63,200 bases of DNA, filler included, from Neolecta irregularis DAH-3 (GCA_001929475.1; 13 parts of 13 records of this genome joined end to end with filler, not necessarily neighbours in it); one strand, 5' to 3'. Counted from the whole stretch's first letter, positions 57,544 to 59,350 are shown. Program-made: numbers and translations. Notes: generated by a model from the letters alone, not told the origin.

Positions 57544-59350
57544 CAGGGCTCCTTTGGCAAGGTCAAGCGTGAGTCGCTCCGCCTGCCCTGCTCACTCCAG
57601 TCGCCCGCCATGCCTCAACCCTCCAGCACGTCGCCCTCAAGATAATAAACCGCCGCTCCCTCGCAACCTCGGACATGGCCGGCAGAGTAGAGCGCGAGAT
57701 CCACTACCTCAAGCTCCTCCGCCATCCCCACATCATAAAACTGTCCCCCCCCCACCCCTGCCCCTCCTGACCCAACAGCTACGAGGTCATCACCACCCCC
57801 ACAGACATCATCATGGTCATCGAATACGCAGGCGCAGAACTCTTCGACTACATCGTCTCCAGGGGAAAGGTCCGTCCCCGTACTACCACCCCTCACCCGC
57901 AGATGGCCGAAGACGAAGCCCGCCGCTTCATCCAGCAGATCGTCTGCGCAATAGACTATTGCCATCGCCACAAAATCGTCCACCGCGACCTCAAACCAGA
58001 AAAGTATCAACCCCACCCCTTTCCACGCTTACCCCTGCTTGCTCCTCGACGACCTCGCAAACGTAAAAATTGCAGACTTTGGCTTGTCCAATATCATGAC
58101 AGACGGAAACTTTCTCAAAACTTCCTGCGGCTCCCCAAACTATGCCGCCCCAGAAGTCATCTCGGGGAAACTCTACGCCGGCCCAGAAGTAGACATTTGG
58201 AGTTGCGGCGTCATCCTCTATGTAATGCTCTGCGGACGCCTCCCCTTTGACGACGAATTCATCCCAGACCTTTTCAAAAAAATAAACGGTTCCTCCTTGA
58301 AATATTCTTCTAATTCTAGGCGGCATATACAGCATCCCCTCCTTCCTCTCCCCCGGCGCAAAAAGCCTGCTATCCCGCATGCTCGTCGTCAATCCAATAG
58401 ACAGGATAACCATCCCAGCCATCATGGATTCAAAATGGTTCAACATCAATCTTCCAGACTACCTCAAACCTCTTGAACGTATTGCAGACCACACCCGCGA
58501 CGAAAATATCGCCTTGAAACTCTCCAAAGTACTTTGCCCTGCTCCATCCCTGACTGCTAGACCTTTTCCTGCTCCATAGACGATGTGCACGACCACCTCA
58601 ATCGCAAAGAACAAAACGACATCAAAGAGGCATACCTCCTGTTAGCAGAGAATCAAAACATGCGCAAGGATTGTTCGTCATCACATAATACCCGCTGACA
58701 TCCAGCCAGATTAATCGGTGCCCAAAACATGCAAAACTTCTTCGCCTCAAGTCCCCCTTCCTGGAATCACGTATATTTCCCTCTGCAACGCGCTAACTTT
58801 CCAGGGAGGTTCTCACCGCTCTCCTCGTTCTCACCATGCCTCGCAAGCCCACCATGGCACTCCTTCTCCCCTTGTCTTTGGCTTCCGCGGCGACCTCTCT
58901 GAAAAACCCCCCCGTTCGACAATCTCCATACTCTCCTCCTCTCTCCCTTCATATCATGAATCCTTCATGAGACGAGAAATGCCAGACTTTCACCTCGAAT
59001 CCCTGCCCGCGCGGAAAAACAAGACTCGCTGGCATTTCGGCATTCGGTCTCGGTCTCCCCCGTTGGAAGTAATGGCCGAAATATACCGTGCCCTCGAAAA
59101 AATGGGCGCACAATGGTCCTTTCACAATCCAGACCCATTTTCAATTAAATGTCTGTGGAAAAAACAAGATGAAGGAATGTTGATTCATATGGATATACAA
59201 CTGTACCTCCTTGAACCAGGCAGCCATCTCGTCGATTTCAAATCTGCGGGATATTATACAATCTCCACCGGCGAGGAAATTTCAAAACCCGCAATGTCCC
59301 CGTTTCCTTTCCTTGACATTGCTACAAGATTAATCACATCACTTGTTTAA
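57544..59350 (+). CDS. snf1: Snf1/AMPK alpha catalytic subunit (5' truncated, multi-exon)
   Basis: [80 protein letters not shown]-terminal [14 protein letters not shown]. Confidence 0.97.

Follow-up and report, generated by a model that had tools for sequence, protein, structure and literature searches.

Introns end almost universally in AG, and this requirement counts among the most rigid rules of pre-mRNA splicing. In a fungal gene that encodes the catalytic subunit of the Snf1/AMPK-alpha kinase, the catalytic loop is interrupted by a short segment that begins with GT and ends with TG. This raises the questions of whether such a segment is really excised at TG and, if so, of what designates its acceptor. 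The segment 58004-58037 is confirmed here to be an intron with GT..TG ends that is removed exactly from the Snf1/AMPK-alpha transcript.

Organization of the Snf1/AMPK-alpha gene

The whole stretch of DNA analysed (the window, 63.2 kb) is a composite of 13 contigs or scaffolds, between which the same artificial spacer (44 N, TTAATTAATTAA, 44 N) recurs 12 times, at 8025-8124, 11103-11202 and so on up to 60323-60422; genes lying on different sides of a spacer are unlinked. The contig that carries the Snf1 gene covers 57544-60245 (2.7 kb) and is followed by a 10-N gap and by a 67-nt tail (60256-60322). It displays a strong C-over-G skew on the coding strand (0.26). The coordinates of the gene and of the other features are given in Table 1.

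Once the eight introns are removed, the gene reads as a single open frame, 513 codons long and closed by a stop (59348-59350), and the two remaining frames of the spliced sequence contain 20 and 8 stops. Over its full length, the spliced product shares 58% identity with the fungal protein P0001 (residues 19-557 of the latter) and 54% identity with a Snf1-type kinase from Saitoella complicata. It contains the motifs GSFGKV, ALKI, HRDLKPEN, DFG and APE; the catalytic loop, DFG and APE are all intact (residues 113, 133 and 157, respectively), as is the C-terminal adenylate sensor PF16579, encoded by the last exon (E 2.1e-27, profile positions 1-118 of 118). A preliminary description of this locus had considered the rest of snf1 to be intact, which agrees with the open frame, the full-length alignment and the presence of PF16579. 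About 18 N-terminal residues are nevertheless missing according to the alignment with P0001, because the contig starts at 57544, inside the glycine loop. No annotated protein model corresponding to the Snf1 gene of the window was found among proteins of 318-2000 aa.

Table 1. Location and main characteristics of the features discussed in the text (positions are those of the window)
Feature	Position	Strand	Characteristics
Snf1/AMPK-alpha catalytic subunit gene	57544..59350	+	9 exons, 8 introns, 5'-truncated by contig end
Exons 1-5	57544-57568, 57601-57742, 57779-57867, 57901-58003, 58038-58287	+	joints as listed
Exons 6-9	58319-58528, 58561-58672, 58706-58770, 58805-59350 (including stop)	+	joints as listed
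Intron 1	57569..57600	+	32 nt, GT..AG, CTCAC, A 6 nt from end
Intron 2	57743..57778	+	36 nt, GT..AG, 64% C, CTGAC, A 8 nt from end
Intron 3	57870..57902	+	33 nt, GT..AG (register +2 of listed joint), CTCAC, A 7 nt from end
Intron 4	58004..58037	+	34 nt, GT..TG, phase 2, GTATCA...CACGCTTACCCCTG, inside codon 120 (N of HRDLKPEN)
Branch-like motif CTTAC of intron 4	58028..58032	+	presumed branch A58031, 6 nt from intron end; motif match
TG acceptor dinucleotide of intron 4	58036..58037	+	preceded by C: CTG (58035-58037) replaces CAG
First AG past presumed branch A of intron 4	58074..58075	+	44 nt from A58031, 38 nt after TG
Intron 5	58289..58319	+	31 nt, GT..AG (register +1), CTAAT, A 6 nt from end
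Intron 6	58529..58560	+	32 nt, GT..AG, CTGAC, A 7 nt from end
Intron 7	58673..58705	+	33 nt, GT..AG, CTGAC, A 7 nt from end
Intron 8	58771..58804	+	34 nt, GT..AG, CTAAC, A 8 nt from end
Scaffold tail, 67 nt	60256..60322	+	66/67 identical to 58015-58081; first base differs
GT-AG introns flanking the 69-nt exon of the alternative-oxidase-like gene	61775-61812, 61670-61705	-	ORF-junction analysis
Two further candidate introns of the alternative-oxidase-like gene	62325-62364, 61969-62009	-	candidate GT-AG

Exact removal of a GT-TG intron

In the window sequence, the 34 nt at 58004-58037 read GTATCA...GCTTACCCCTG on the + strand. Past the kinase peptide, the upstream frame continues as K-Y-Q-P, without any kinase sense, and the kinase reading resumes downstream in the +1-shifted frame. 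Joining 58003 to 58038 creates the codon AA/C (N) and restores HRDLKPENLLLD. Any other cut fails, as a shift of one base alters this N, and the ambiguity of the boundary is 0 letters. Across the junction, in codon 120, the alignment is ungapped through HRDLKPEN/LLLD against P0001, P0002 and P0009; HRDLKPEN followed by three aliphatic residues is found in 25 out of 41 homologs and any HRD motif in 26 of them.

AG is absent from the intron, and the nearest one lies downstream and out of frame. It had been described as located about 40 nt further on, immediately before the DFG codons; the distance is close to the 38 nt found here, but this AG overlaps the first DFG codon rather than preceding it. 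Its use would lead to a 72-nt intron and to a shifted frame. Gene finders that demand AG would break this Snf1 model, either by truncating the kinase or by adding about 11 spurious residues followed by a frameshift.

Two public sequencing runs from one study (X1 and X2) hold the stretch, both on record only as 'DNA?', which is a guess. The data used here are the contigs assembled from these runs, and such contigs are blind to splicing efficiency, minor isoforms and retained introns. One X2 contig (5285 nt, word depth 299) joins 58003 to 58038; this joint skips 34 nt with GT..TG ends, its shorter side is 103 nt and its ambiguity is 0. The same contig has seven GT..AG joints, the successive segments skipped along the gene being 32, 36, 33, 34, 31, 32, 33 and 34 nt. 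The X2 depth falls in every bin that holds an intron, and the interiors of the introns are covered by 0 X2 contigs. Only the TG-joined form of the gene was assembled in X2, and not the unspliced one, it being understood that contigs drop rare variants. Because a single contig cleanly removes eight short introns, it is most simply viewed as a transcript assembly. The proposal of a 34-nt GT-TG intron ending in CTG within the Snf1 catalytic loop is thus borne out by the X2 joint, and the junction predicted for its removal, CCAGAAAA/CTTGCTCC, is exactly present in the spliced contig.

This intron has two characteristics of U2-type introns: it is exactly removed with restoration of the frame, and it has a GT 5' end (GTATCA at 58004). 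As its 3' end is CTG (58035-58037) instead of AG, it is assigned to the known rare GT-TG subclass.

The X2 spliced contig begins about 5 nt upstream of 57544 and extends about 3.7 kb beyond the stop. The genome contig and the X2 contig break at the same place in the glycine-loop codons of Snf1, which raises the question of a repeat or of a paralogous kinase motif. A gene resembling those encoding ankyrin-repeat proteins (59446-60131, - strand, recognised by eye only) is convergent with Snf1. The X2 contig runs on through it, and the 3' ends of the two transcripts may overlap.

Short spacing between branch-like motif and acceptor in the Snf1 gene and in the window

The introns of the Snf1 gene are 31-36 nt long (n=8). 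Each of them contains exactly one CTNAY motif (8/8), and the spacing between this motif and the intron end is short and invariant, the A being located 6, 8, 7, 6, 6, 7, 7 and 8 nt from the last base of introns 1 to 8. When 20,000 shuffles were made that keep the composition and ends of each intron, a maximum of 4/8 was obtained, and this by 6 shuffles. In each of the seven introns that end in AG, no other AG comes between the A of CTNAY and the acceptor. The sole CTNAY of the TG intron is CTTAC, and its position is of the same class as in the seven sister introns, the branch being assigned by motif match. TG occupies the position of the AG of the other introns and is preceded by C, as in 5/7 AG introns. 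A branch-like CTTAC near the intron end had been pointed out in the preliminary description and is indeed found there, with its A 6 nt before the end. The further suggestion that the acceptor is set by the distance from the branch fits the spacing found in the eight introns (6-8 nt), which makes it plausible for the TG intron as far as motif positions can tell.

The donors of introns 1 to 8 are GTGAGT, GTCCCC, GTCCGT, GTATCA, GTTCCT, GTACTT, GTTCGT and GTATAT. These donors (57569-58804) share almost nothing past GT, which is unusual for a fungus; GTATGT or GTAAGT donors are commoner in the other genes of the window. The C content is 44-64% in introns 1-4 (57569-58037) and 23-38% in introns 5-8. 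C-rich tracts are located upstream of the branch motif, and none is found between branch and acceptor.

In the remainder of the window, 15 candidate GT-AG introns (31-42 nt) join the ORFs of seven other genes, and 12 of the 15 carry a YTNAY motif whose A is 6-9 nt away from the intron end; these candidates were picked as GT-AG solutions, without transcript check, and cannot be used to gauge the frequency of non-AG acceptors. The genes sampled encode an MFS transporter, an amino-acid permease, an Ish1-repeat protein, a GH47 protein, importin-13 and an AGC kinase (all identified using Pfam) and an alternative-oxidase-like protein (identified by eye). The junctions GH47 A/B, UCH and first amino-acid permease are outside this set of 15 introns. 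These 15 candidates show that introns are as a rule ultra-short here, with acceptors close to the branch. An ab initio scan that joins ORFs by short introns with a branch motif gave 53, 42, 34 and 31 'needed' candidates ending in AG, TG, CG and GG, respectively. It was too noisy to serve as a detector of further non-AG acceptors and was dropped.

The alternative-oxidase-like gene (61408-62638, - strand) was recognised by eye from the diiron-motif-like peptides that it encodes. At least four short GT-AG introns can be proposed in it, as well as an internal exon of 69 nt. The junction between its exons 3 and 4 was considered as a case with no AG and one TG, and was rejected, since the 69-nt exon and the two GT-AG introns flanking it explain the junction.

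Some other features of the window can be mentioned. A C-rich low-complexity block (60423-61150) is made of words of the CCCGCC or CCTGTC type, with an AT-rich island around 60640-60700 and AAAGCCCATGGGC-like words near 60778 and 61128. This block yields long spurious ORFs on both strands. An ORF of 1119 uninterrupted codons (230-3586, + strand) matches no Pfam family at an E value of 0.01 or below, and no tRNA was found by a tRNA scan of the window.

Relatives and lineage

The complete Per1 ORF of the window (3902-5077, - strand) has its best matches in Taphrina deformans (51% identity), Morchella, Saitoella, Protomyces and many Pezizomycotina. Among the 120 matches listed, all named proteins are from ascomycetes and none exceeds about 55% identity. 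The best protein matches of Snf1 have 58% identity or below. These similarities suggest that the fungus is probably a deep-branching ascomycete without close sequenced relative in the collections searched.

Among metagenomic sequences, the catalytic loop is uninterrupted in all of the 80 relatives kept out of 208 confirmed matches (L001-L080). No close relative is found among these 80, the best one sharing 68% identity over the kinase domain. The gene encoding the nearest protein, P0001 (58% identity), is intronless (L001, 4001-5680). An intronless P0001 gene and 80 relatives devoid of a catalytic-loop intron thus contrast with the 8 introns found in 1.8 kb in the gene studied here.

Proposed mechanism and alternative explanations

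The likely explanation, held with good but not full confidence, is that 58004-58037 is a genuine U2-type GT-TG intron that is precisely removed and in which a very short tether between branch and acceptor dictates where the acceptor lies and tolerates U at position -2. According to this model, only about 6-9 nt would separate the branch site from the 3' splice site in the introns of this genome (31-42 nt). With so short a spacing, only a few nucleotides would be able to reach the catalytic centre after branching, and the acceptor would be picked mainly by its position. G-1 would still pair with G+1 of the 5' splice site, C-3 would be retained, and U-2 in place of A would be tolerated owing to a relaxed sequence control of branch-proximal acceptors at exon ligation. 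In the Snf1 intron, A58031 would be the branch point, its distance to the intron end would act as a ruler, and TG would be the only or the main acceptor.

Several data obtained in yeast bear on this model. A cryo-EM summary indicates that recognition of the acceptor AG involves non-Watson-Crick pairing with G+1 of the 5' splice site and with the branch adenosine, and that Prp8 reads the pyrimidine at -3 (PMC11651659). The shortest natural branch-to-acceptor distance reported in Saccharomyces cerevisiae is 10 nt; without Prp18, this yeast uses sites located 7-10 nt from the branch as well as non-YAG sites, including a 'BG' class, and substrates with a short branch-to-acceptor distance have less need of Slu7 and Prp18 (PMC10711555). 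Loss of Fyv6 activates branch-proximal non-consensus sites, which may escape proofreading by Prp22 (PMC11651659). By the same counting convention as in the yeast work, the Snf1 gene lies wholly in the branch-proximal regime (6-8 nt).

A broader proposal, tentative and rather doubtful at this stage, is that exon ligation is largely position-driven in this lineage, so that any NG located at the end of the tether (6-8 nt away from the branch) would be ligated and TG would be the sole constitutive acceptor of the Snf1 intron, within an essential catalytic loop. Surveys in human and fly suggest that such a thing hardly ever occurs in these two species. If the proposal holds, stand-alone non-AG acceptors would form a measurable class in the genome, and second-step fidelity factors would be altered or lost (Prp18, Slu7, Fyv6 or proofreading by Prp22).

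Among the alternatives, the one that survives best is a weak and regulated TG acceptor: a large part of the pre-mRNA would either use the AG ending at 58075 instead, leading to a frameshift and decay, or keep the intron, so that the intron would throttle the Snf1 output. An AG is indeed present 38 nt downstream, and the TG acceptors of human and fly are almost always alternatives to AG (PMC2374985; 22 out of 23 in Table 3 of PMC4528330). However, 38 nt exceeds the maximum of 28 nt reported for TG-AG tandems in human (PMC2374985), an acceptor 44 nt away from the branch would be far outside the 6-8 nt found in this gene, and the TG-joined form was the only one assembled in X2, contigs being prone to lose rare variants. 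This regulated use of TG is therefore unlikely, and it is compatible with the tethered U2-type GT-TG intron favoured above.

Less probable still is the proposal that the true acceptor is AG, T58036 resulting from an assembly or sequencing error or from a strain polymorphism and the transcript originating from an AG allele. The spliced contig is by nature silent on the bases of the intron itself, so that the evidence has to come from the unspliced sequences. The window has T at 58036; the 67-nt piece has it as well, and so does an X1 contig (4372 nt, word depth 432) that is colinear with 57673-59360, with 0 other letters and 0 gaps. As this contig does not differ from the window, base 58036 is T at the DNA level. 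A consensus error is unlikely given this depth and the 0 differences over 1688 nt, and 0 variant letters are listed in X1 at the 5% threshold. Both the X1 contig and the 67-nt copy might nonetheless derive from the reads of the assembly itself. X1 may thus be the same data as the assembly, in which case a consensus slip is excluded but the confirmation of T58036 is not independent. The second copy with the same CTG at 60256-60322, suspected from the outset to come from the same reads, is an assembly leftover, neither a second copy of the gene nor independent evidence, since it is the terminal piece of the same scaffold, separated from the rest by a 10-N gap.

The donor consensus of U12-type introns, which are spliced by the minor spliceosome, is [AG]TATCCTT, and their branch box is TCCTTAAC-like and located 10-15 nt from the intron end. 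Membership of the Snf1 intron in this class, in which non-AG ends are tolerated and the distance to the branch site decides on the acceptor, is very improbable. Its donor begins with GTATC, identical to the first five bases of this consensus, but GTATCAAC fits only 5 of the 8 positions, with AAC instead of CTT at +6 to +8, and does not place the intron in the class. Moreover, CTTAC is located 6 nt from the end as in the seven U2-type neighbours, and does not resemble a TCCTTAAC-like box at 10-15 nt. Non-canonical termini are known in U12 introns (PMC10639083), but a survey of more than 3000 genomes reports no convincing minor introns in Ascomycota or Basidiomycota (PMC10639083); the placement of the fungus among ascomycetes rests here on the Per1 matches. 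An Rfam scan of the 63-kb window gave no match and detected no snRNA, so small a stretch saying little in this respect.

Equally improbable is a joined form that does not result from splicing at all (template switch during reverse transcription, assembly artefact or intronless DNA retrocopy in X2): the library type of X2 is not on record and false non-canonical junctions are known to arise by template switching (PMC7072748, PMC2483917), but the latter requires direct repeats whereas the boundaries share no sequence (ambiguity 0), seven canonical introns are removed in the same contig, joining the two sides brings back an invariant catalytic motif in frame, and a retrocopy would itself copy an mRNA spliced at TG.

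Comparison with known systems

GT-TG introns are a recognised rare class, to which the Snf1 intron adds an apparent independence from any AG. In human, TG acceptors are reported in 36 genes, where they are described as 'never the sole 3' splice site' and have an AG partner within 28 nt, and AG>TG mutants show no splicing at TG (Szafranski et al. 2007, PMC2374985). In Drosophila, 23 GT-TG introns are annotated, with a similar alternative splice for 22 of them (FlyBase 'Rule-Benders', Table 3 of PMC4528330). The Snf1 intron resembles these introns by its GT..TG ends, its U2-like context and the exact use of TG. It differs from them in that it contains no AG, the nearest one being 38 nt downstream and out of frame, and in that the TG junction makes a functional kinase. 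It therefore lacks the AG partner within 28 nt that characterises the human-type TG-AG tandem. Since TG is never the sole acceptor in human and AG>TG mutants are unspliced at TG according to the same source (PMC2374985), a stand-alone TG needs a lineage-specific explanation.

The curated annotation of another fungus, Ganoderma lingzhi, includes GT-TG ends in 22 introns (0.024%; Table 1 of PMC11590231). This fungal GT-TG class, of very low frequency in G. lingzhi, is like that of the Snf1 intron. However, G. lingzhi is a basidiomycete with introns of ordinary sizes, and the main text of that source describes no link with branch distance. More generally, in the main text of the literature covered on GT-TG introns, non-canonical splice sites and fungi, no stand-alone TG acceptor tied to branch proximity was found.

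The sites activated by deletion of prp18 or fyv6 in yeast share with the Snf1 acceptor, as interpreted here, their proximity to the branch (7-10 nt in yeast), the lack of the A of AG (TG is one of the 'BG' sites) and a relaxed sequence requirement at exon ligation (PMC10711555, PMC11651659). The yeast products are errors that mutant spliceosomes make at low level, whereas TG would here be a normal and productive acceptor in a wild-type organism. Yeast genetics thus ties the branch-proximal regime to a relaxed fidelity of acceptor choice, but in crippled spliceosomes only.

A fixed and short spacing between branch and AG has also been described in Yarrowia lipolytica, Trichomonas vaginalis and Giardia lamblia (PMC2483917). 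As in these organisms, the branch motif of the introns studied here is separated from the 3' end by a very short spacer of nearly constant length, which lacks a polypyrimidine tract. The three organisms are described as intron-poor, with a strong extended branch consensus and AG ends (PMC2483917), whereas the Snf1 gene is densely interrupted (8 introns over 1.8 kb), with a motif reduced to CTNAY, weak donors and one TG end.

Taken as a whole, what differs from the known systems is the combination of an absence of AG within 38 nt, an essential catalytic codon, a wild-type fungus and tethers of 6-9 nt. The best-studied exceptions to the AG rule, the TG acceptors of human and fly, depend on a neighbouring AG, whereas the TG of Snf1 appears to act alone. 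If this TG is constitutive, the organism would provide a natural system in which geometry can be set against base recognition in the choice of the acceptor.
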